This document shows, in pieces, positions 12,615-21,635 of a DNA stretch of 64,000 bases. How positions within the stretch are numbered: the stretch's first letter is position 1; the number at the start of each line of letters is the position of its first letter. The notes under the pieces are model-generated. The model ran no database searches. It was not told where the DNA came from and was given only the letters and a program-made list of their open reading frames with translations. Source of the DNA: an uncultured Candidatus Peribacteria bacterium (GTDB lineage Bacteria > Patescibacteriota > Gracilibacteria > Peribacterales > Peribacteraceae); the NCBI GenBank assembly GCA_964497975.1, contig CAZCFO010000002.1, positions 115,768 through 179,767 of the forward strand, in the 5' to 3' direction. The position numbers were made by a program, and so were the translations under genes.

Positions 12615-14450
12615 GTGCGTAAATTAACTTTTGTCCTTGCCGCTACCCTCCTGATTCTCTCCGTCGCGGAAACTGTTCCGATGGCGGAGGCAAAAGTGAT
12701 GCCTCTCGCCGAGCGCATCCGCATCCGCCGCAACCGGCGTCTGCCGGCCGCCATGGACGCGCTCAAGGTGATGTCCTCCACAAGCAGCTCCACATCCTCC
12801 GCCGGCCGCGCACCCGTCATGCGCCCACCGTCCATCCGCGCACGCCGCGCCCTGTCTTCGTCCAGTTCTTCCATCAGCTCCGGCATCAGCACGCCCATCC
12901 GCGGCGTTCTGCAGATCGACCAGGTTGCCTCCGGGCCCATGGACAACGTCGCGGGTTCGACCGCGGTGACGCTCCTGATGTTCGACGCCACCGTCGCGAA
13001 CGAAAATGTCGTCCTCTCCACGCTTAAGTTCCGCGCCGAACAGGGATCCCTGTCCGCGGCGGACCAGTACGAACTCCATGCCGTATCCTCCACCGGGCAG
13101 CGGACGCGGCTGTCCGTCGCCCCCTTCTCGTCCGACGTGATCGCGTTCCACGACCAGCGCATCCTCCTGCAGGAAGGCAAAACGCAGCGCTTCGCGATCA
13201 CCGCAAGACTGCGCTCCGGGGGATCGTCCTCGTCGATCGCACTGGGCTTCCTCACCTCCGATCCCCTCTTCATCCAGGCGAAAGGCATCCGGTACAACCG
13301 CGATCTGGCGCCCGGCATCCAGGTCGATGACATTCCCTGCAACGGCGCCTACGTCTGCCGGGTGATCGTCCACACGCGCCCGGCGGGCAACATCACGGTC
13401 CACACGCTCGGCAATCTTTTTGTCACCCGCGATACGCTCCCGTCTCCCTCCCGCCAGCTGCTCTTGGGGGAGAAATCCGATGCGGCCCTGCGACTCAAAT
13501 TCCACGCCACGGCCGAAGACGTCGCCGTCACGTACCTTTCAATCGGCGGCGGCAACGACAGCATCTTTGCGCTTGAGCTCTTTACCGACGGCTCTTCGAC
13601 GCCGTTTGCGACCGCACGCGAAGTCCAGTGCGACACGCCCACGCCGGGAGAATTCTGCGCGCGGATGGCGGACGGCATGTTCACCGTCCCGCAGGACCGC
13701 GACGTCCGCGTCCACGCACGGGCGGTCATGAAGGCCAACAGAGAAGGGGGCACGTCAGGCGAGACCGCCGCATTCACGCTCACCGATTCCACCTCGTCGC
13801 ACCTCGCCGTCAAAGCCCGCGGGCACAGCTCCGGCAAAGACCTTTCGCAGAACAACGGCAACTCGTCCACGGAGGGCGAAATCTTCATCGGGCGCGAATC
13901 ACCCGGCGGCAACTCCTCCATCACGTCGTCGACGCATGATGCCGTCGCCGCGAAGATCACGGGCATCTCCAATGCCAACGCCGATGCCGACCAGTCAGCG
14001 ATTCCGTACGGGCTCTCCACCTTCGGCGCATTCCGCTTTACCGCCGCGCCCAACCAGAATGCGCGCTTCGTAACCTTCACGAGGCTCGTCTTTACGGTCT
14101 CGGCGCTGAATTTTCAAGTCGCCGACATCCGGCTCTTCAATACCGCTGATAGCTCCAAAACGATCACCTGCTCCACCTCCGGCACGACGGGAACGATCAC
14201 CGTCACCTGCGACAATCCCGTCAATGGCACCGTGGTGACCTCCATCGATCAGGGCAGTACCGCCACCTTCGCTCTCCGCGGGTTCATCACCTCCGGCAAC
14301 ATCGGCGGCACGGCGTTCCTGCAGGCCACGCTTGGCAGCCTGGGCGACCGCAGCACGCCGGGGTCCGTGGAATGGACCGATGGCGAAAGCAGCTTCACCT
14401 GGATGGACGTTCCGGTGACGCAAGTACGGTCGACGCAGTATCGGTCGTGA
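12615..14450 (+). CDS. secreted Ser-rich hypothetical protein
   Basis: 611-aa ORF with GTG start, N-terminal signal-like segment LTFVLAATLLILSVAETVPMAEA, Ser runs, then a beta-rich region. No family recognised. Confidence 0.6.
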   Translation: MRKLTFVLAATLLILSVAETVPMAEAKVMPLAERIRIRRNRRLPAAMDALKVMSSTSSSTSSAGRAPVMRPPSIRARRALSSSSSSISSGISTPIRGVLQIDQVASGPMDNVAGSTAVTLLMFDATVANENVVLSTLKFRAEQGSLSAADQYELHAVSSTGQRTRLSVAPFSSDVIAFHDQRILLQEGKTQRFAITARLRSGGSSSSIALGFLTSDPLFIQAKGIRYNRDLAPGIQVDDIPCNGAYVCRVIVHTRPAGNITVHTLGNLFVTRDTLPSPSRQLLLGEKSDAALRLKFHATAEDVAVTYLSIGGGNDSIFALELFTDGSSTPFATAREVQCDTPTPGEFCARMADGMFTVPQDRDVRVHARAVMKANREGGTSGETAAFTLTDSTSSHLAVKARGHSSGKDLSQNNGNSSTEGEIFIGRESPGGNSSITSSTHDAVAAKITGISNANADADQSAIPYGLSTFGAFRFTAAPNQNARFVTFTRLVFTVSALNFQVADIRLFNTADSSKTITCSTSGTTGTITVTCDNPVNGTVVTSIDQGSTATFALRGFITSGNIGGTAFLQATLGSLGDRSTPGSVEWTDGESSFTWMDVPVTQVRSTQYRS

Positions 14451-14453
14451 TTA

Positions 14454-15479
14454 CTAGTCTTGAGAGCGATCAAATGCAGATTGCAATCCACCTCTTAAAT
14501 TCTTCCACGAGAATGCCTTGTCATACTCGCTACAAAATATTTCAGCTTTTTTTTGGTATTCATTAGTTGCCTTCGACCAGCGAAATAGTTTGCTTTTCTT
14601 GAGTTCGAAATTAATTCTAAATCCATTTGCCGTAAGTGGTTGCGGACGGTCTCTGTAGTATCTTGCGATATTTTCTTCAATTGTTGTTAATTTATCATCC
14701 CTTCTGTGTGGCTTTAACTCTTCCCTATTTTTTGCAGAACTAAAAATAAAAGTTATTTCGGCATAAATATTCTTCAATGACACCAATAAATAATCAGAAC
14801 CACTTGATGTCCTAATAATGCCTCCTGGGGGCAGGAAGAACTTTTGATTGGTTCCAATTAAACCAAAATAATCCTTTAGGCCGATTTCATTTCCTTTTGA
14901 TTCTCCACTACAAGTGATTCTCTGAGAGCCACCGGATAATCCAATAAACATCGGCTCTGCCTTGCAGCCCGCCCAGTCGGAATTCTTTACGTGCATCCAA
15001 GAGAGAGTGGCGGCTCCTAAAAGCTGTAAATCATACTGAGGGTGCTGTTTTGTTTCTGTCTTCTGCAACTGATCAATGCCACTTATTTCATTGTAACCGT
15101 CTAATTCTCCGTTCAGCCATGCGACATTATCATTGTATAAGGCGAATATCTCAGGGGATATTAAATCACCAGAACCAGTTTTAAAAAGCATTACATCAGT
15201 AGTGCAACTAATCGGCTCCAGTTTGTTATTGATGTTCCATAAGACAAAGCTAACTGAAGAAGCCACTACAAAAATTACTACTTTTATCCACGTATGCCAT
15301 TTTTTGTCAGCAACCCAAATACCCAAGCCCGCTATAAGAATTGTCGCAAGAAGTTGACCACCAATAACATCGCGATCTGTAGGATTTATAGGCCAATTTG
15401 CCCAGAATATAATAATTAAAATAGTAAATACGCAAGCTGCGATAGAGAGAATGATCGCGGGTTGTCTTTTTTTTCGCAT
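14454..15479 (-). CDS. hypothetical membrane protein (AT-rich gene)
   Basis: MRKKRQPAIILSIAACVFTILIIIFWA... with three N-terminal hydrophobic helices and a roughly 230-aa soluble domain. Trimmed to the ATG at 15479, where G+C changes. Confidence 0.6.
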   Translation of the reverse strand: MRKKRQPAIILSIAACVFTILIIIFWANWPINPTDRDVIGGQLLATILIAGLGIWVADKKWHTWIKVVIFVVASSVSFVLWNINNKLEPISCTTDVMLFKTGSGDLISPEIFALYNDNVAWLNGELDGYNEISGIDQLQKTETKQHPQYDLQLLGAATLSWMHVKNSDWAGCKAEPMFIGLSGGSQRITCSGESKGNEIGLKDYFGLIGTNQKFFLPPGGIIRTSSGSDYLLVSLKNIYAEITFIFSSAKNREELKPHRRDDKLTTIEENIARYYRDRPQPLTANGFRINFELKKSKLFRWSKATNEYQKKAEIFCSEYDKAFSWKNLRGGLQSAFDRSQD

Positions 15480-15752
15480 ATTTATTGAAGCAGTAATCAG
15501 GATCTTGGTTGGCTGGGCCTGACGCGCCGCATCCGTACTTTTTGCCGTTCCGGAGCCAAGAACGTGGCATTCGTGCGCTGCGATTTGCAGGCTCAACAGG
15601 TCCGATCGGCAGTTGGTGACGCGGATCTCAGCGTGCAACGGCGGAGCGAGTCAGGGAAGAGCGATGACCGCCAGAAGGCAGCCATCTGCTCCGCGCCTAT
15701 TTGCCACACCCCGGCCCCCGAGTTATAGGATGACCTGTTCCCACCTCTTTCG

Positions 15753-17270
15753 ATGAAATACTTCCTCTACTGCCGCAAATCGTCGGACCGGGAGGACCGC
15801 CAGATCCTGGGGCCCGAGGCGCAGAAGCGGCTCCTCCTGGAGTTCGCCGGTAAGAAGCACCTGGACGTCGTCGACGTCTACGTCGAGCACCAGACGGCGT
15901 ACAAGAGCGGCCGACCGCTCCTCAACGAGATGCTCAAGCGCCTGGAGCGGGGCGAGGGCGACGCCATCCTGACCTACCACCTGACGCGGCTGGCCAGAAA
16001 CAGCTTCGACGGCGGCCGGATCATCTACATGATGGACGAGCGGACCATCCGCGAGATCTCCACGCTGGAGAAGACCTACACCAACCACGCCGACGACAAG
16101 TTCCTGATGCAGATCCACTTCGCCATGGCGAAGAAAAGCTCGGACGACACCAGCCAGTTCGTGACCCGCGACATCGAGTCGAAGCTCCTTAAGGGGGAGT
16201 ACCCGGGCCTGGCCCCCCGCGGCTACCTCAACATCACCCGGGACGGGCACATCGCCCGCTCGCGCGACACGACGGAGCGCTACCTGCAGCTGCTCAAGCT
16301 CGGCCGGCCGCTGAGGCGCGAGGAGATCGACCCGGTGGAGGGCCCGCTCGTCCGCTGGCTCTTCGAGCAGGCCGCGGAGGGGAAGAAGACCGTGCGGCAG
16401 CTGCAGCGCCTGGGCTTCCAGGCGGGGCTGCGCTGCCCCAAGAGTGGGCGGATGCTCACCAAGGCCACCGTCCGCAACATCCTGACGAACCCCTACTACT
16501 ACGGGGCCATCGAGTACCGCGGGAAGCTCTACACCCAAAACGTCCAGCACGAGCCGCTCGTGTCCAAGGCGGTCTTCGACCGGGCCGTGCAGGCCCTGGG
16601 CCGGCGGGGGCGGTTCCGCAAGCACGTCTACACCTTCGGGCGGGGCTTCGCCCACTGCGGGAGCTGCGGCAGCGTGGTGACCGCGGAGACGCACAAGGGG
16701 CACGTCTACTACCGCTGCGCGAAGTCCAAGACCACCTGCGACCAGAAGAAGTTCGTCCGCGAGGAGGCGCTGGAGTACCAGGTGATCGAGCTGCTCGACG
16801 GCCTGCGGATACCCCGGGCGTTCGCGGAGTACGCCCGCGGCCGCCTGCCGCAGGTGCAGGCCGAGCAGGAAAAGGTCGCCGCCCACCTGCGCGGGCGCTA
16901 CGAGGCGCGGGTGGCCGAGTGCCAGGGGACGCTGGAGCGGCTGCTGGAGTTCAAGACGTCGCCCAACAACGCCGACGGCCGGCTGCTCTCCGACGAGGAG
17001 TACCTGCGGCAGCGCGAGCGCATCCTGGAGGAGCTGGACGCCTGCAAACGCCAGCTGTCTGGGCTCGGCGGGACCGCAGGGGCGGCCCCCGTGAAGGAGC
17101 TGCAGTCGCTGATCCACAGGTTCAACGACTCCACATCCGAGGAGAAGCAGTCGATCCTGCACCAACTCGGGACGAACTGGAAAGTCCGGGACGGGCGCAT
17201 CACCGGAGAGTTGCGGGAGCCGTATAGCACTCTGGTTGGCCTTGCGGCCAGCGGGCAAGGAAACGAATGA
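15753..17270 (+). CDS. large serine recombinase
   Basis: N-terminal resolvase motif YCRKSSDRED (catalytic Ser), TYHLTRLARN, a recombinase domain, Zn-ribbon CGSCGS...YYRC and a C-terminal coiled-coil-like region; 505 aa. Confidence 0.85.
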   Translation: MKYFLYCRKSSDREDRQILGPEAQKRLLLEFAGKKHLDVVDVYVEHQTAYKSGRPLLNEMLKRLERGEGDAILTYHLTRLARNSFDGGRIIYMMDERTIREISTLEKTYTNHADDKFLMQIHFAMAKKSSDDTSQFVTRDIESKLLKGEYPGLAPRGYLNITRDGHIARSRDTTERYLQLLKLGRPLRREEIDPVEGPLVRWLFEQAAEGKKTVRQLQRLGFQAGLRCPKSGRMLTKATVRNILTNPYYYGAIEYRGKLYTQNVQHEPLVSKAVFDRAVQALGRRGRFRKHVYTFGRGFAHCGSCGSVVTAETHKGHVYYRCAKSKTTCDQKKFVREEALEYQVIELLDGLRIPRAFAEYARGRLPQVQAEQEKVAAHLRGRYEARVAECQGTLERLLEFKTSPNNADGRLLSDEEYLRQRERILEELDACKRQLSGLGGTAGAAPVKELQSLIHRFNDSTSEEKQSILHQLGTNWKVRDGRITGELREPYSTLVGLAASGQGNE

Positions 17271-17281
17271 GTGACAAACAA

Positions 17282-18253
17282 TCAATCAAGATCGGGAGCT
17301 GATTCTAAATCAAACGAGCGGCCACCCACCTGCAAATTCTTCTTTGAAACCCAAACAAAACCTTTGTCGGGAGTAATAACAGCAACATCGACAGCCCCAC
17401 CCACGCCCGGAACGTCTCCCGGATCACCGCGTATGCCATCCGAGAATCGTTGGATAGCAGTTGTCGTTTGGATTAGAAGGACAGAAAAATCGATGCCGTC
17501 TTGTAACGTCATGGTCCCCCATTGGATAGCGTATTCTAGCTGCTGCAATTGCTGGTTTATAACATCCTGTCCTTGTGTGGAGAAGGCGTTATGAACAAAG
17601 GACAGGTTTCCAATTCGAGGATCAAACCCGAGAACGATCCTTGTTACGACATCAAACTGGCCGATCCAACTCGCCCCAAATTCTTGTCCCTTTTTTGTGC
17701 TATCTCTCTTTGTCTCGACTTCTCCTGGAACATTTACTATCAGGACTTGATGGGAACCATCAGGGTTATATCCGGCCAAATGGAACTGTAAGCGATCTAC
17801 CGCTGCCATGCCGGATTTTTCAATTCCTGCCGGATCAATAAAGGAAAATGTCAAATGTCCTTTTTCTTTCTTAAAAGAAATATTTGTGCAACCTTGCCTC
17901 TCCAGGTCAGCCTTGATTTGAAGAGGTAAGGCTTCGAGCTGTGCATGATACGGATATTTCTTTTCAAAAAAGTCCTCCAACTTTTTCCCGATTTCTTTGA
18001 TAGTCATTTTCTCAATCTCGTGAATTCTTTTAAATTCGTCAAGAAAGTGACTGATGTTCTTCTGTATACCATCTTGATCTTGTAGGAATGCCAAGCCTGC
18101 CATGATCACGCCGACTCTTTTCCCAAGGCGGTACACTTTCGATGCGGAGTCGGAGCCGATCCGGCTGATATTCTTGTGATTGCGATACGACTGCCGACTA
18201 TCTGCGGCGAGGACCATGCCTTCTGACGTGGTAGTGTTGATGCCGAGACTCAT
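17282..18253 (-). CDS. proteasome-beta-like Ntn (Thr) hydrolase with a large insertion
   Basis: MSLGIN-TTTSEGMVLAADSRQSY, GVIMAGLA and GGAVDVAVITPDKGF match the proteasome/HslV fold signature as I recall it. The ATG at 18253 overlaps the upstream stop (ATGA). Confidence 0.6.
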   Translation of the reverse strand: MSLGINTTTSEGMVLAADSRQSYRNHKNISRIGSDSASKVYRLGKRVGVIMAGLAFLQDQDGIQKNISHFLDEFKRIHEIEKMTIKEIGKKLEDFFEKKYPYHAQLEALPLQIKADLERQGCTNISFKKEKGHLTFSFIDPAGIEKSGMAAVDRLQFHLAGYNPDGSHQVLIVNVPGEVETKRDSTKKGQEFGASWIGQFDVVTRIVLGFDPRIGNLSFVHNAFSTQGQDVINQQLQQLEYAIQWGTMTLQDGIDFSVLLIQTTTAIQRFSDGIRGDPGDVPGVGGAVDVAVITPDKGFVWVSKKNLQVGGRSFDLESAPDLD

Positions 18254-19044
18254 AGATCGGAGGGAAAGAAGCGGAGTGCGAAGAACACGCCGAGAAACAG
18301 AACTGCCACCCAGGCGAGAGCCTCGATACCGAAGCCAATGCTCCCAGTTACAGTCTTGAAAAGCAGAAGTGCGATGCTTGACCACAGGGCAGCCGAAGGC
18401 ACCCGAATCGCAGAAGGTGCAGCTTGAGCGTTGCGACCCGCAGTCCATACCGATGGCCGCTGCGTATTTGAATTACTCGTTGAGACGTTTGAGTCGGAGG
18501 CGCTTGTTCCGTTTGCTTGCAAGGTGTGTGATTTGAAGCGCGCAGGATCAACATTCGCTAGCTGGTTCTTGGTAAATGGTGAGGCACCATTCGCTGGGGT
18601 AAAAGAGGGTCTAGGAATTAATTGTTCCATTGGCGCTCTGTGGTCGTACCTCGCGAATGGAAAGCGGAGTGCTGTGGGCATCCGCAATTCCCGATAGCTC
18701 TTGTCGGTCAGCTGCATTGAGCGGGGAGATTTCTTTACGAGGTAGCCTTTCTTGATCAGAGCGCCCACGACACCTGCCGCGGACTTGTGGTCTGAAAGGC
18801 CGATGGTATCCGCAATCTCTTGTAGGGTCGGTGCAGAGAGATACCGACAGCGGTATTCGAGAACGAATTGCAGAACTCGGAGCTGGTTTTTAGAAAGCAC
18901 GGTCGGTAGTTTACTACCCACTGGGTGGGTAGCGCAAGCGCACTGCGCAAAAAGCTGCTTTTTTTCGGTAAGAAAAGCTTCGCCTATCCTCTGCGTAAGC
19001 AAGGATTTGAACCCACTTTTTCGCTTCTGTTCGCCATCTAACAT
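18250..19044 (-). CDS. LexA-N-terminal-like winged-helix protein with a C-terminal membrane anchor
   Basis: LSKNQLRVLQFVLEYRCRYLSAPTLQEIADTIGLSDHKSAAGVVGALIKKGYLVKK resembles the LexA DNA-binding domain. Low-complexity linker, then two C-terminal hydrophobic segments. Trimmed to the ATG at 19044 so it does not overlap the tRNA. Confidence 0.55.
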   Translation of the reverse strand: MLDGEQKRKSGFKSLLTQRIGEAFLTEKKQLFAQCACATHPVGSKLPTVLSKNQLRVLQFVLEYRCRYLSAPTLQEIADTIGLSDHKSAAGVVGALIKKGYLVKKSPRSMQLTDKSYRELRMPTALRFPFARYDHRAPMEQLIPRPSFTPANGASPFTKNQLANVDPARFKSHTLQANGTSASDSNVSTSNSNTQRPSVWTAGRNAQAAPSAIRVPSAALWSSIALLLFKTVTGSIGFGIEALAWVAVLFLGVFFALRFFPSDL

Positions 19045-19110: not shown

Positions 19111-19185
<75 letters not shown>

Positions 19186-19363
19186 ATGCGAGTGAAATGG
19201 TAGCAGAACCGCGACGTGCCCTGAACCGGAGCGCAGCGACTGGTTCAGGGCTCCCCAATGCGGAAGGAAGTTTACCAGAGTTCGTTTCCGGAAATGCACA
19301 ACGATATATCCTGCTTTGGATGCTCATTTCTCTATGTACGAGATCTTTAGAATACCTGCAATT

Positions 19364-19401: not shown

Positions 19402-19674
19402 ATGACTACCACCATCCAAGTCCGGACTGATCAGGGAACAAAGAAGGCTGCCCAGCAGATTTTGCAGGCTCTTGGTTTGGATCTCAGCACAGCTATTAAT
19501 ATTTATCTGGTGCAGATTATTGAAAAACATGGCATCCCCTTTCCCATCGTGACCGAAAATGGATTGAGTGAGGAAACAGAGAAGTCGATTCTTAAAGATC
19601 TTGAAACTGCGAAGAAGAGCAGAAAGAGCTTTTCTTCTGCTAAATCCATGCACAGGGCTATACTTTCCAAGTGA
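19402..19674 (+). CDS. dinJ: RelB/DinJ-family antitoxin
   Basis: MTTTIQVRTDQGTKKAAQQILQALGLDLSTAINIYLVQIIEKHGIPF matches the DinJ/RelB ribbon-helix-helix N-terminus. Overlaps the toxin start by 4 nt. Confidence 0.75.
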   Translation: MTTTIQVRTDQGTKKAAQQILQALGLDLSTAINIYLVQIIEKHGIPFPIVTENGLSEETEKSILKDLETAKKSRKSFSSAKSMHRAILSK

Positions 19675-19979
19675 ATCAGGGCTCTCGAATTCCAAAGGCT
19701 TACCGCATCGTTCCCAGCAATCGCTACGAGAAAGATGTGAAGCGACTTGCAAAGTCCGGTGCGGATTTGTCAAAACTGGAAAGCGTCGTAGATGCACTCG
19801 CGCAAAACAAACTCTTGCCGGCGCGGAACAGAGATCATGAACTGAAGGGTGATTTGAAGGGAATTCGCGAGTGCCACATCGCCCCGGACTGGCTCCTGTT
19901 ATACAAGAAGGAGCGGCACCGTTGCATTCTTCTGCTGTTACGGACAGGGAGTCACCGCGACACATTGAATCGCGAGTAA
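19671..19979 (+). CDS. yafQ: YafQ-family mRNA interferase toxin
   Basis: DHELKGDLKGIRECHIAPDWLLLYKK...LLLLRTGSHRD matches the YafQ/RelE signature. GTG start overlaps the antitoxin stop. Confidence 0.75.
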   Translation: MNQGSRIPKAYRIVPSNRYEKDVKRLAKSGADLSKLESVVDALAQNKLLPARNRDHELKGDLKGIRECHIAPDWLLLYKKERHRCILLLLRTGSHRDTLNRE

Positions 19980-21635
19980 TTACACCCCGCCCTCCGCGCG
20001 CATCGTGCACCGCACGAGCCGTAATGTCGTGTACGAAACCTGTTCCCCGAGGGTGTCGAACACCGGCCGCAGCCGGTCGGTGCCGCATTCCTCGAAGGCG
20101 TCGCGGATGCTCTGGATGTCGGGAACACCCTGCGCGAGGTAATCGAGCTCCAGCGGAATCCCCTGCTCCAGGAAGTCCTCGATGTAGAGAAGGACGCGGT
20201 CCGGCTTCACGTTGCAGGCCGTGACGATGTCGTCGAACGGCTTCTGTTCGTCGAGCATCGCGCGAATCATGCCCGCGCGGCGCAGTTTCACGCCTTCCCC
20301 GGTTTTCTCCTTCTTCGGCTTCTTCACTTTCTCAGGAGCAACGAACAGCGGCCGCGGCGTGTACGTGCGCATTTCGTCGGCAAGCGAGTCGTAGAGCTGT
20401 GTCACCAGCTGCTCTGCACGGATGGACGCTGGTGACCAGCGTTCCACGAAGAGACCGGCCGTGGAGCGGACACGGCTGAGCGCGACGTAGGCCTGCCCCG
20501 GTTCCCAGAGTGACGAGAGATCGACGATCATCCGGTCGAGCGATGCGCCCTGGGCTTTGTGGATGGTCGAAGCCCACGCGAGGCTCACGGGAAAGTTCCA
20601 CGCGCCGAGGATCTCGTTGCCGTCGCCGTCGAGGCATGTGAACTTCTGCTTCTCGAGCTCGATGGTGTCGCCGGTGAAGAGCGTGATATAGAGGAGCTCT
20701 TCCGTGATCGAGCGGATATGCCCCAGGCTGCCGTTCACGTACAGCCGCTCGGGAGTCACGTCGTTCTTGCGGAGCATCACCAGGGCGCCTTCCTTCAGGT
20801 TCAGGATCTCGGGAATCGGCAGCGATTTCTTCGCCGATTCCCTGTACCGCTCGTCGCCCGCGTACTGCGTCGCGAACGAATGGACGGGTCCCGGAATCGA
20901 CTGCAGGCGGCGCTGGTTGTACTCCTCGGCCTGGGCCCGGTGCGGGTAGAGCCGCGTGGCGTCGACGTTGTCGGAGAGCTGCGTGGTACGGTCATTCAGA
21001 AAATCGCGCACATCGTCGTTGACGATGCCCGCACGGACGAAGTTGAGGATATCGAGGAAATCCGCGTCCTGCGTGCGCATCACCGTCGAGAGCAACGCCG
21101 GCCGGAACTCGCTGCGATGCCAGACGTGATGCAGGAACGCCCAGTCCTTGTCGTATCCGCCGTAGGTGACGGGCGGCAGCTGCGCGAAGTCCCCCACCGC
21201 GATGATGCGCAGTCCTCCCCAGGGCTCGTCGCTCCGGCGTGCAATCCGCGAAATCTGTTCCGCGGCGGCGAGCATTTCTCCGGAGAGCATCGAGACTTCG
21301 TCGATCACCACCACGCAGGCGATCTGCAGGCGGCGCATTACCCGGCCGCTGCGCATCGCGCGCGCGACCGTCGCTTCGTAGCCGCCTTCCATGATGCCGA
21401 GTCCGAAGAAGCTGTGGAACGTGCGTCCGCCGATGAGCACCGCCGCCGCGCCGGTGCTGGCCACGACCGGAAAGAGGTCCGACGGTTTGTCCCGGAGGTA
21501 GTGATCGAGAAGGAATGTCTTTCCCGTTCCTGCCGCACCCGTTAAAAAGACATTCCCCTGCCGCTTGAGGATATCCAGCGCCTTGTCCTGGCAGCTCGTG
21601 AGTGCGGGGGGCGCTGCGAGGACGTCTGTGCACAT
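19980..21635 (-). CDS. Pif1/RecD-like ATP-dependent DNA helicase with a C-terminal HTH-like domain
   Basis: Walker A GAAGTGKT, Walker B VVVIDEVSM, GDFAQLPPV, STIHKAQGASLD; C-terminal roughly 100 aa helical domain. Confidence 0.8.
   Translation of the reverse strand: MCTDVLAAPPALTSCQDKALDILKRQGNVFLTGAAGTGKTFLLDHYLRDKPSDLFPVVASTGAAAVLIGGRTFHSFFGLGIMEGGYEATVARAMRSGRVMRRLQIACVVVIDEVSMLSGEMLAAAEQISRIARRSDEPWGGLRIIAVGDFAQLPPVTYGGYDKDWAFLHHVWHRSEFRPALLSTVMRTQDADFLDILNFVRAGIVNDDVRDFLNDRTTQLSDNVDATRLYPHRAQAEEYNQRRLQSIPGPVHSFATQYAGDERYRESAKKSLPIPEILNLKEGALVMLRKNDVTPERLYVNGSLGHIRSITEELLYITLFTGDTIELEKQKFTCLDGDGNEILGAWNFPVSLAWASTIHKAQGASLDRMIVDLSSLWEPGQAYVALSRVRSTAGLFVERWSPASIRAEQLVTQLYDSLADEMRTYTPRPLFVAPEKVKKPKKEKTGEGVKLRRAGMIRAMLDEQKPFDDIVTACNVKPDRVLLYIEDFLEQGIPLELDYLAQGVPDIQSIRDAFEECGTDRLRPVFDTLGEQVSYTTLRLVRCTMRAEGGV

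Follow-up and report, generated by a model that had tools for sequence, protein, structure and literature searches.

In ICEBs1, as in the wider group of Xre-COG2856 pairs, the genes for a repressor and a protease (ImmR and ImmA in ICEBs1) are adjacent, and site-specific cleavage is believed to inactivate the repressor. Taspase1, a Thr-type N-terminal nucleophile (Ntn) protease, cuts transcription regulators after Asp at D-G sites. Mga2 and Spt23, two transcription factors tail-anchored in the endoplasmic reticulum, are processed by the proteasome according to a preprint (bioRxiv 10.64898/2026.08.31.748402). Among proteasome homologues, a 2021 survey defined PMI-3 ('Proteasome homolog with Multiple Insertions') together with 21 others; PMI-3 then comprised 28 sequences, and no genomic context or co-occurrence pointed to a function (Fuchs, Alva & Lupas, Bioinformatics 2021, PMC8665760). 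Here, we describe a two-gene cassette in a 64,000-nucleotide stretch of DNA (hereafter the window) from an uncultured Candidatus Peribacteria bacterium (GenBank assembly GCA_964497975.1, contig CAZCFO010000002.1, positions 115,768 to 179,767 of the forward strand). Gene 1 encodes a LexA-like winged helix-turn-helix (wHTH) protein and gene 2 a member of PMI-3; they follow tRNA-Gln(TTG) in that order on the minus strand, and a serine recombinase gene lies beyond gene 2 on the plus strand. A preliminary description, made from the letters of this DNA, had taken the pair for a candidate regulated-proteolysis switch. As judged by sequence comparison across genomes, a wHTH protein without an S24 domain (usually with a C-terminal anchor) and a proteasome-type Ntn hydrolase form a conserved unit.

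Gene 2 shares 67% identity over 98% of its length (E = 5.7e-134) with OGZ26396.1 (P0018 in our protein set), which is the published representative of PMI-3 (PMC8665760). By this homology gene 2 belongs to PMI-3, a family that has been described but is functionally uncharacterised. Its relatives are numerous: 1159 were found in a protein collection clustered at 90% identity (best non-self E = 1e-140), the best 120 being 60-69% identical over the full length, and a profile search of 1.84 billion cluster representatives returned 1462 proteins at E <= 1e-3, of which 95 reached E <= 1e-30. The family now exceeds 1100 clusters at 90% identity, as against the 28 sequences of 2021. Shorter relatives of ~270 residues align only to profile positions ~1-60 and 150-307 and also match Pfam Proteasome weakly. 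Gene 2 itself does not reach the threshold of that Pfam model (PF00227; 17.8 versus 22.4 bits, residues 9-55 only), and an archaeal beta-subunit model matches it weakly, at the N-terminus alone. An AlphaFold2 (AF2) model built on 26 homologues (predicted local distance difference test, pLDDT, 76.9; predicted template modelling score, pTM, 0.75) gave 287 Foldseek matches in the PDB at E <= 1e-3, the top 50 of which were all 20S subunits with probability 1.0. The proteasome-type Ntn fold anticipated in the preliminary description is therefore borne out by the model, in its alpha-beta-beta-alpha form.

The assignment of the active site follows a different course from the one first proposed. Apart from beta subunits and HslV, proteasome homologues lack a propeptide and carry a Thr1/Ser1-Asp17-Lys33 triad (PMC8665760). 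Among 199 PMI-3 N-termini, 159 have Ser at residue 2, 39 have Thr and one has Ala, position 18 is Asp or Glu in every sequence, and the Lys motif is found in 193; in the family alignment, Asp18 and Lys39 are invariant and Ser2 is nearly so. HMMER pairs residue 5 of gene 2 with residue 4 of a beta-subunit chain, a register that would equate Ser2 with Thr1 of the beta subunit, provided that chain begins at the mature Thr1. Because of this alignment and the spacing to Asp18 and Lys39, the nucleophile is placed at residue 2, and gene 2 is a predicted Ser-Ntn hydrolase whose active site would be exposed by removal of the initiator Met, with no propeptide to be shed. The preliminary description had called for a Thr peptidase with a short propeptide before the Thr; neither element survives, given the position of the nucleophile in the census of 199 sequences and the Ser at residue 2 of the window protein. 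Conservation of a nucleophile, on which that description had made its reading depend, is seen in 198 of the 199 N-termini, with Ser or Thr at residue 2. The TTT run of gene 2, which sits within strand S1, was considered as the nucleophile and rejected on the Asp18/Lys39 spacing and the beta-subunit register.

An insertion of roughly 100 residues had also been noted in gene 2. Extra residues are indeed present, but they appear to be spread over at least two sites and not one, as indicated by the AF2 model and by the published family description (PMC8665760). In the AF2 secondary structure, additional strands occupy residues 123-151 and additional helices residues 202-245, and the insertions of PMI-3 have been placed after H1/H2 and between H3/H4, where they are predicted to hinder ring assembly (PMC8665760). 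Within the neighbourhoods examined, as distinct from whole genomes, no AAA+ unfoldase or alpha-type gene is conserved beside PMI-3 in any clade. PMI-3 was found neither by tblastn of GenBank phages and PLSDB plasmids nor on IMG/VR contigs, and a phage or plasmid origin of the family was rejected on that absence. Searches against PHROGs returned generic wHTH matches only for gene 1 and one 27-residue match for gene 2.

Conservation of the pair was assessed by clustering the open reading frames (ORFs) around 83 PMI-3 loci, namely the window and loci taken from a genome collection at species level or met in preceding searches. One upstream family was present in 20 distinct loci, with the window record counted once, and a local hidden Markov model (HMM) raised the number of partners to ~25 of the 83. 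Partners were located in this way because profile searching under-recovered even its own input sequences (a profile of 16 partners returned 10 proteins); a word-index homologue search with gene 1 returned only gene 1 itself. They share the wHTH domain, a linker motif and a terminal hairpin, with 16-29% identity to the window protein, and in most pairs the upstream gene overlaps the PMI-3 start by 4 nt or stops 1 nt before it. The ATGA overlap reported earlier for the window holds, with the stop codon of gene 1 at 18250-18252 and the start codon of gene 2 at 18251-18253, both on the minus strand.

In a neighbour-joining tree of PMI-3, a partner accompanies 20 of the 21 leaves of one contiguous clade, inside which the window copy falls. 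The sole leaf of this clade without an anchored partner is locus L020; there, a canonical LexA of 198 residues with the S24 motif GDSMEP (L020:2737-3333, plus strand) is encoded upstream of PMI-3, at a distance of 264 nt. For PMI-3 and partner, pairwise identities are correlated (Mantel r = 0.80, reached by none of 5000 permutations), with median values of 61% for PMI-3 and 20% for the partner. The reverse test gave the same association: partner-profile hits P0275 and P0279 each precede an overlapping PMI-3 gene (56% identity). Co-occurrence outside this genome, a point on which the preliminary description had staked its proposal, is confirmed in ~25 other loci, with the pairing recurring across many bacteria of candidate phyla. 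Both ORFs are real genes, gene 2 having its 1159 relatives and the gene 1 family recurring upstream of gene 2 homologues.

The distribution of PMI-3 as a whole is patchy and extends across phyla, and genes of other kinds precede it in several lineages. Among Atribacterota (L041, L045, L048, L050, L051, L057, L059, L060, L062 and L070), PMI-3 is preceded, 27-28 nt upstream, by a 392-residue protein with two transmembrane segments and TPR repeats; among Caldisericota (L047, L058, L065, L067, L068, L071, L072, L074, L075 and L086), the preceding gene encodes a protein of ~253 residues with three transmembrane segments and a conserved 'ENGTLADL' stretch. These genes are kept only among close relatives, so synteny by descent is possible, and both were rejected as alternative partners because their conservation is limited to closely related genomes. 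Two loci of the candidate phyla radiation (CPR) carry, just upstream of PMI-3, a LexA-like N-terminus fused to an N6/N4 DNA methyltransferase (L032:4143-5618 and L026:1118-3019, both minus strand); in the L032 fusion, a by-eye reading of the sequence suggests that the LexA part includes an S24-type region.

Gene 1, numbered here in the 264-residue form that starts at ATG 19044, matches Pfam LexA_DNA_bind (PF01726) over residues 50-105 (24.9 bits, E = 1.8e-5; cut-off 23.7). Its AF2 model rests on nine sequences and is reliable for the wHTH alone; in it, residues 52-120 form a confident winged helix (pLDDT 85-90), for which the best Foldseek matches are LexA DNA-binding domains, namely 3k2z (root-mean-square deviation 1.1 A over 65 columns), 3jso, 1jhh and 1lea. 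These two lines of evidence uphold the LexA-like wing proposed from the letters. The absence of the S24 self-cleavage domain was likewise confirmed, with no Pfam Peptidase_S24 match in gene 1 and a TIGR00498 score of 22 bits against a cut-off of 110.95. Residues 123-218, a linker of ~95 residues, are predicted to be disordered (pLDDT ~32, no secondary structure) and are followed by two predicted helices, 217-235 and 240-259. The long linker and two hydrophobic helices of the preliminary description are accordingly retained as predictions for the linker and the pair of helices, while only one helix rises above a Kyte-Doolittle value of 1.6 (windows of at least 1.6 cover residues 232-250); several CPR homologues show two hydrophobic segments. 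The hairpin is likely to be inserted into the membrane.

Within the linker, an alignment of all partner types reveals a consensus of the form hydrophobic-K-x-[DN]-G-[TS]-x-x-[DN], the window version of which is LQANGTSASD. The motif is kept in the truncated, anchor-less partners of L014, L024 and L042, which end shortly past it, and it also occurs in the unrelated, non-wHTH upstream ORFs of L027 and L029. A regular expression for the motif matched 12 of 55 upstream ORFs compared with 8 of 693 background ORFs, which is suggestive and no more.

A candidate operator lies immediately before an in-frame GTG of gene 1. It consists of a perfect palindrome, CTACCCAC-CCA-GTGGGTAG, at 18914-18921/18925-18932 (8-nt arms, 100% complementary, 3-nt gap), and of a third half-site at 18902-18910, directly before GTG 18900; on the minus strand, a -35-like TTGCGC (18932-18937) and a -10-like TAAACT (18908-18913) flank the palindrome. 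A promoter is proposed at 18908-18937 on the strength of the family architecture and not of hexamer quality. Upstream of partner genes, the recurring layout is TTGAC, an immediate inverted repeat (arms of 7-10 bp, gap of 1-4 nt) and a TATAAT-like box, with a short leader or none between that box and the gene. Of 22 regions upstream of partner genes, 13 contain an inverted repeat in which 8 or more positions match, as against 14 of 114 control regions, and the sequence of the arms varies with the partner subfamily. The predicted operator is present as a single copy in the 64-kb window; in 14 records covering 12 further loci, flanking sequence included, each record likewise holds one copy. No second copy was found near the recombinase in the window or in these records. 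Since the operator is unique to each locus, the wHTH protein looks like an autoregulator of its own two-gene operon, and from this predicted architecture DNA binding and autorepression by the gene 1 product are likely.

The position of the operator also bears on the start of gene 1. No comparable promoter or palindrome was seen before ATG 19044, which makes that start, taken in the preliminary description, doubtful. Translation from GTG 18900 yields (M)LSKNQLRVLQF, resembling the family N-terminus MTxNQxxLxxF, and on these two grounds the start was moved to 18900. Gene 1 would then run from 18250 to 18900 and encode 216 residues, an assignment that we consider probable and rate no higher because the promoter hexamers are weak. 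The database call for this gene (P0121, 295 residues) begins at 19137, overlaps tRNA-Gln by 27 nt and is almost certainly over-extended.

We tentatively favour the reading of this locus as a self-contained repressor-protease cassette under autorepression. In it, the partner's linker would be the target of PMI-3, which would cut at [DN]-G-[TS] and uncouple the DNA-binding domain from the anchor; our confidence in this reading falls somewhat short of an even chance. According to this scheme, the gene 1 repressor, most likely as a dimer, would bind the palindromic operator over its own promoter and repress the gene 1-gene 2 operon, while its disordered linker, with the (K)-x-[DN]-G-[TS] motif, would join the DNA-binding domain to the C-terminal membrane hairpin. 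Cytoplasmic PMI-3, its Ser2/Asp18/Lys39 active site freed simply by loss of the initiator Met, might recognise the linker motif and cut there, a speculative step, as is any action of PMI-3 on the partner. Repression would change once the cut had severed the DNA-binding domain from the C-terminal portion that anchors or dimerises the protein, so that the scheme would amount to LexA logic run in trans by a proteasome-type protease, on a horizontally mobile cassette. The narrower proposition, in which PMI-3 is a site-specific Ser-Ntn endopeptidase that in the cell has the membrane-tethered, LexA-like repressor encoded beside it as its physiological substrate and cleaves it at [DN]-G-[TS], is more doubtful and should be taken as rather unlikely. 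In silico, the favoured reading draws support from the folds, the catalytic residues, the coupling and co-inheritance of the genes, the architecture and per-locus uniqueness of the operator, the foreign origin of the pair, and its mobility and occurrence in restriction-modification islands.

Several observations weigh against the favoured reading. About two thirds of the PMI-3 loci examined have no wHTH partner (the Caldisericota, Methanobacterium and Atribacterota clades, among others), from which it follows that PMI-3 either is active independently of the partner or has other substrates. The partners in L031, L035, L023 and L036 bear soluble C-terminal domains in place of the anchor, and in the window protein a single C-terminal helix is clearly hydrophobic. 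The linker motif is short and degenerate in several partners, and its regular expression was written post hoc. At the promoter, the window hexamers are weak (3 of 6 matches for TTGCGC and 4 of 6 for TAAACT), and a sigma-70 scan reported no minus-strand promoter between 17000 and 19500.

Comparison with described systems clarifies what is shared and what is particular to the cassette. It has in common with PMI-3 at large the proteasome-like fold, the Ser/Thr1-Asp17-Lys33 triad and the absence of a propeptide (PMC8665760); it differs in that one clade is tightly coupled to a LexA-like partner. With LexA, gene 1 shares the type of N-terminal winged helix, a predicted palindromic operator over its own promoter, and a flexible linker as the presumed site of inactivating cleavage. 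Unlike LexA, it lacks the S24 Ser-Lys peptidase/dimerisation domain, no RecA logic is visible, its C-terminus is a predicted membrane hairpin, and any proteolysis of the partner would fall to a separate protein of the proteasome type. HslV, Anbu and BPH have the same core fold and an N-terminal nucleophile exposed without a long propeptide, whereas PMI-3 has no co-encoded AAA+ unfoldase in the loci examined, scores below the Pfam Proteasome threshold and contains large insertions predicted to hinder double-ring assembly (PMC8665760). Mga2, Spt23 and Taspase1 offer an analogy, and only that, for the release or alteration of a DNA-binding protein tethered to a membrane through the action of a Thr/Ser-Ntn protease, and the D-G site of Taspase1 resembles the [DN]-G core of the linker motif. 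These systems are eukaryotic and either ubiquitin-dependent or of the asparaginase-type Ntn family, and homology with the cassette is not indicated.

The genomic setting of the pair varies widely. In CPR genomes it is found beside GroEL and ASCH, beside Bac_transf and SecA, beside UvrC and a methyltransferase, or with PolX and LysM on one side; it behaves as an autonomous cassette that turns up in unrelated places. Restriction-modification genes are its commonest neighbours, with nine DNA methyltransferases, two ResIII, HaeII, TdeIII and a type I S subunit among the 79 neighbour ORFs of 15 pair loci, and a methyltransferase-motif ORF is located no more than 5 kb away in 8 of 25 pair loci versus 5 of 58 others. 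Seven independent loci encode a large serine recombinase at most ~6 kb from PMI-3, and six of the seven bear the partner; beyond the window these loci are L009, L014, L024, L037, L081 and L099, and in L037 the recombinase is also convergent and adjacent. In L009, the pair is accompanied by a recombinase, a C5 methyltransferase and HaeII, and L099 contains, besides the pair, a TraG-like coupling protein, AAA_15, Rep, a recombinase and Bro-N.

Base composition sets the cassette apart from its host. The GC content at third codon positions (GC3) is 0.82-0.84 in flanking host genes, compared with 0.47 in the PMI-3 gene and 0.55 in the wHTH gene; it is 0.35 in the gene of a neighbouring 341-residue membrane protein, 0.48 in relB and 0.95 in the serine recombinase gene. 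The pair is foreign to this genome on this measure, and the recombinase and the pair therefore have different histories. The low-GC patch of ~5 kb holds no transfer, replication or structural genes, and no convincing direct repeats were seen flanking it. No att-like copy of the tRNA-Gln 3' end was found elsewhere in the window. The neighbourhood of tRNA-Gln looks like a patchwork of separately acquired cassettes.

The closest rival to cleavage of the partner by PMI-3 is a toxin-antitoxin-like or abortive-infection cassette, which we regard as unlikely though well worth keeping in view. PMI-3 would then be a harmful or effector protease and the partner an antitoxin, its wHTH domain autorepressing the operon and its linker motif lying in the active site as a pseudosubstrate, such that partner loss through phage attack or loss of the element would unleash PMI-3. 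The likeness to type II toxin-antitoxin systems, in silico, takes in the order of the genes, DNA-binding gene first, and their 4-nt overlap, the N-terminal DNA-binding domain followed by a disordered C-terminal region, the autoregulatory palindrome over the promoter (one per locus) and the far stronger conservation of the second protein (median identity 61% versus 20%). It extends to the patchy, cross-phylum spread and to residence on mobile DNA and in defence islands, with nine methyltransferases and five restriction or specificity components among the 79 neighbour ORFs and with AbiEii, OLD-type AAA_15 and RelB/YafQ genes nearby. Set against this likeness, neither product was matched by PADLOC, PMI-3 is absent from the phage, plasmid and IMG/VR collections searched, and a membrane anchor such as that predicted for the first protein is atypical of antitoxins. 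The second protein is a 323-residue protease homologue and not a small RNase- or kinase-type toxin, unusually large and slow-evolving for a defence effector, and it is kept without a wHTH partner in many lineages, including a cultured Methanobacterium. Those partnerless loci, about two thirds of the total, with other upstream genes or none in most clades, are the main support for a plainer account to which we give less weight again: gene 1 would be a membrane-associated, one-component wHTH autoregulator that merely sets PMI-3 expression, the substrates of PMI-3 lying elsewhere. The operator and promoter evidence also fits this account, as do the canonical LexA of L020 and the LexA-methyltransferase fusions of L032 and L026, which show LexA-type regulators to be common in these islands. 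What a plain regulator leaves unexplained is the conservation of the linker motif even in truncated partners, the strict start/stop coupling, and the near-universal retention of the pair in one PMI-3 clade.

Two further explanations have a far smaller share of our confidence. PMI-3 might be no endopeptidase at all. It might work as a ligase or transpeptidase with sequence specificity, in the manner of connectase, or as an amidohydrolase whose substrate is not a protein, and the partner would then be a ligation target or unrelated. Connectase, another monomeric proteasome homologue, is a specific ligase, and the PMI-3 insertions are predicted to hinder ring assembly; yet PMI-3 keeps helices H1/H2, which connectase lacks (PMC8665760), and the neighbourhood gives no sign of a small-molecule pathway, so that we hold this account to be very improbable. 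Slimmer still is the chance of an ICEBs1-like immunity switch, in which repressor, anti-repressor protease and recombinase would govern the excision or activity of an element integrated at tRNA-Gln, as the preliminary description had suggested from the order tRNA, regulator, peptidase, recombinase. That order does hold, although the recombinase is on the opposite strand and convergent with gene 2, and the adjacent genes for a repressor and a dedicated protease on mobile DNA do recall ImmR and ImmA. The association with recombinases that it proposed to survey in other genomes exists in part: six partner-bearing loci have one within ~6 kb, L099 with its TraG-like coupling protein, Rep and Bro-N among them, out of ~28 pair loci, most of which have none and lie amid housekeeping or restriction-modification genes. 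The cassette differs from ImmR/ImmA in having a LexA-type wHTH and not HTH_XRE, a Ser-Ntn proteasome fold and not a Zn metalloprotease (no Pfam match to an ImmA/IrrE-type metalloprotease was found in the pair), and a repressor predicted to be membrane-anchored. The window recombinase is both convergent with the pair and unrelated to it in composition (GC3 0.95 versus 0.47/0.55), which is why the immunity-switch reading is weak; the tRNA 3' end has no att-like repeat in the window, no second operator lies by the recombinase there or in the 14 records from 12 other loci, and the ~5-kb low-GC patch is without transfer, replication and structural genes. The repressor/protease/integrase logic proposed earlier was not borne out on these grounds.

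Features of the cassette and its immediate surroundings (window coordinates; gene 1 residues in 264-residue numbering)
Feature	Coordinates	Strand	Basis
Gene 2, PMI-3 proteasome homologue, 323 residues	17282..18253	-	67% identity to OGZ26396.1, AF2, Foldseek
Gene 2, predicted active-site codons	Ser2 18248-18250; Asp18 18200-18202; Lys39 18137-18139	-	N-terminus census, alignment
Gene 1, preferred start GTG 18900, 216 residues (probable)	18250..18900	-	operator position and family N-terminus
Gene 1, long form from ATG 19044, 264 residues	18250-19044	-	listing in the preliminary description
Gene 1, LexA-like winged-helix domain, residues 50-120	18685..18897	-	PF01726, AF2, Foldseek
Gene 1, predicted disordered Ser/Thr/Asn/Ala-rich linker, residues 123-216	18397..18678	-	AF2 pLDDT ~32
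Gene 1, linker motif LQANGTSASD, candidate PMI-3 recognition/cleavage site	18493..18522	-	partner alignment column block
Gene 1, C-terminal helical hairpin, putative membrane anchor, residues 217-259	18268..18396	-	AF2, hydropathy
Predicted promoter/operator of gene 1	18902..18937	-	inverted-repeat search, family layout
tRNA-Gln(TTG), directly upstream of cassette (context only)	19111..19185	-	ARAGORN; Rfam tRNA 65.9 bits
Large serine recombinase, convergent with gene 2 (context only)	15753..17270	+	Pfam Resolvase + Recombinase + Zn_ribbon_recom

Other features of the window surround the cassette. The serine recombinase gene, with a GC3 above even that of the host genes and a composition unlike that of any of its surroundings, carries a 520-residue antisense ORF (15723-17285), typical of very high-GC genes. 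Beyond it, a 341-residue protein with an N-terminal membrane anchor is encoded at 14454-15479 on the minus strand (GC 0.39); it matched nothing beyond noise in Pfam, NCBIfam, PHROGs and PADLOC and appears to be another foreign gene of the low-GC patch. The patch is bordered by a gene of host-like GC (0.64; 12615-14450, plus strand) for a 611-residue protein that begins with a signal-like segment and contains long runs rich in Ser. On the far side of tRNA-Gln, a RelB antitoxin (PF04221, E = 5.7e-10) and a YafQ toxin (PF15738, E = 4.9e-30) are encoded at 19402-19979 on the plus strand with a 4-nt overlap, both genes being low in GC (0.44 and 0.52) like the cassette, and a PIF1-like helicase gene (19980-21635, minus strand; PF05970, E = 7.8e-27), with a C-terminal HTH_40, abuts the YafQ gene. 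The 5' end of tRNA-Gln (CGCATTGGGGAG, minus strand; 19179-19207) is repeated 72 nt upstream at 19251-19279 (72% over 29 nt), followed by a GC-rich hairpin; the repeat may have been left by a past integration or rearrangement at this tRNA. Three Logan contigs, each an independent assembly of this region (L001-L003, from SRR14271332, SRR14271336 and SRR14271331), all break 887 nt upstream of PMI-3, at tRNA-Gln, a shared break that may reflect population heterogeneity or a repeat at the junction.

A literature search on the pairing of LexA with proteasome homologues, on later PMI-3 work and on membrane-tethered LexA-like factors found nothing relevant. The preliminary description had not seen such a switch described; its peptidase belongs to a family already published as PMI-3 (PMC8665760), and it is for the pairing alone that the statement holds. 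As far as the literature found shows, the repressor-protease pairing, the operator, the linker motif and the island context are undescribed. Two earlier points are corrected here, namely the active site, now assigned to Ser2 with no propeptide, and the start of gene 1, for which GTG 18900 is probable. The LexA-type pairing provides the first functional lead for the orphan family PMI-3, and the cassette is a concrete and cheap test case, with a single protease and a single candidate for each of substrate, cleavage motif and operator. Should PMI-3 leave its partner alone, the cassette would still be a well-defined toxin-antitoxin-like or defence-island candidate. Should the protease process its partner, the repressor-plus-protease logic of LexA, ImmR/ImmA and BlaI/BlaR1 would extend to the proteasome fold. 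The narrower proposition on the substrate of PMI-3, if true, would mean that one of the 22 orphan proteasome homologues had for the first time been given a defined function and substrate, and would yield the first proteasome-family protease dedicated to transcription-factor processing in prokaryotes, a bacterial counterpart of the processing of tethered transcription factors by proteasome- and Taspase-type enzymes. The cassette would be one that spreads among CPR bacteria inside restriction-modification islands, and a regulatory or conflict module common in a group of bacteria in which few systems are understood.

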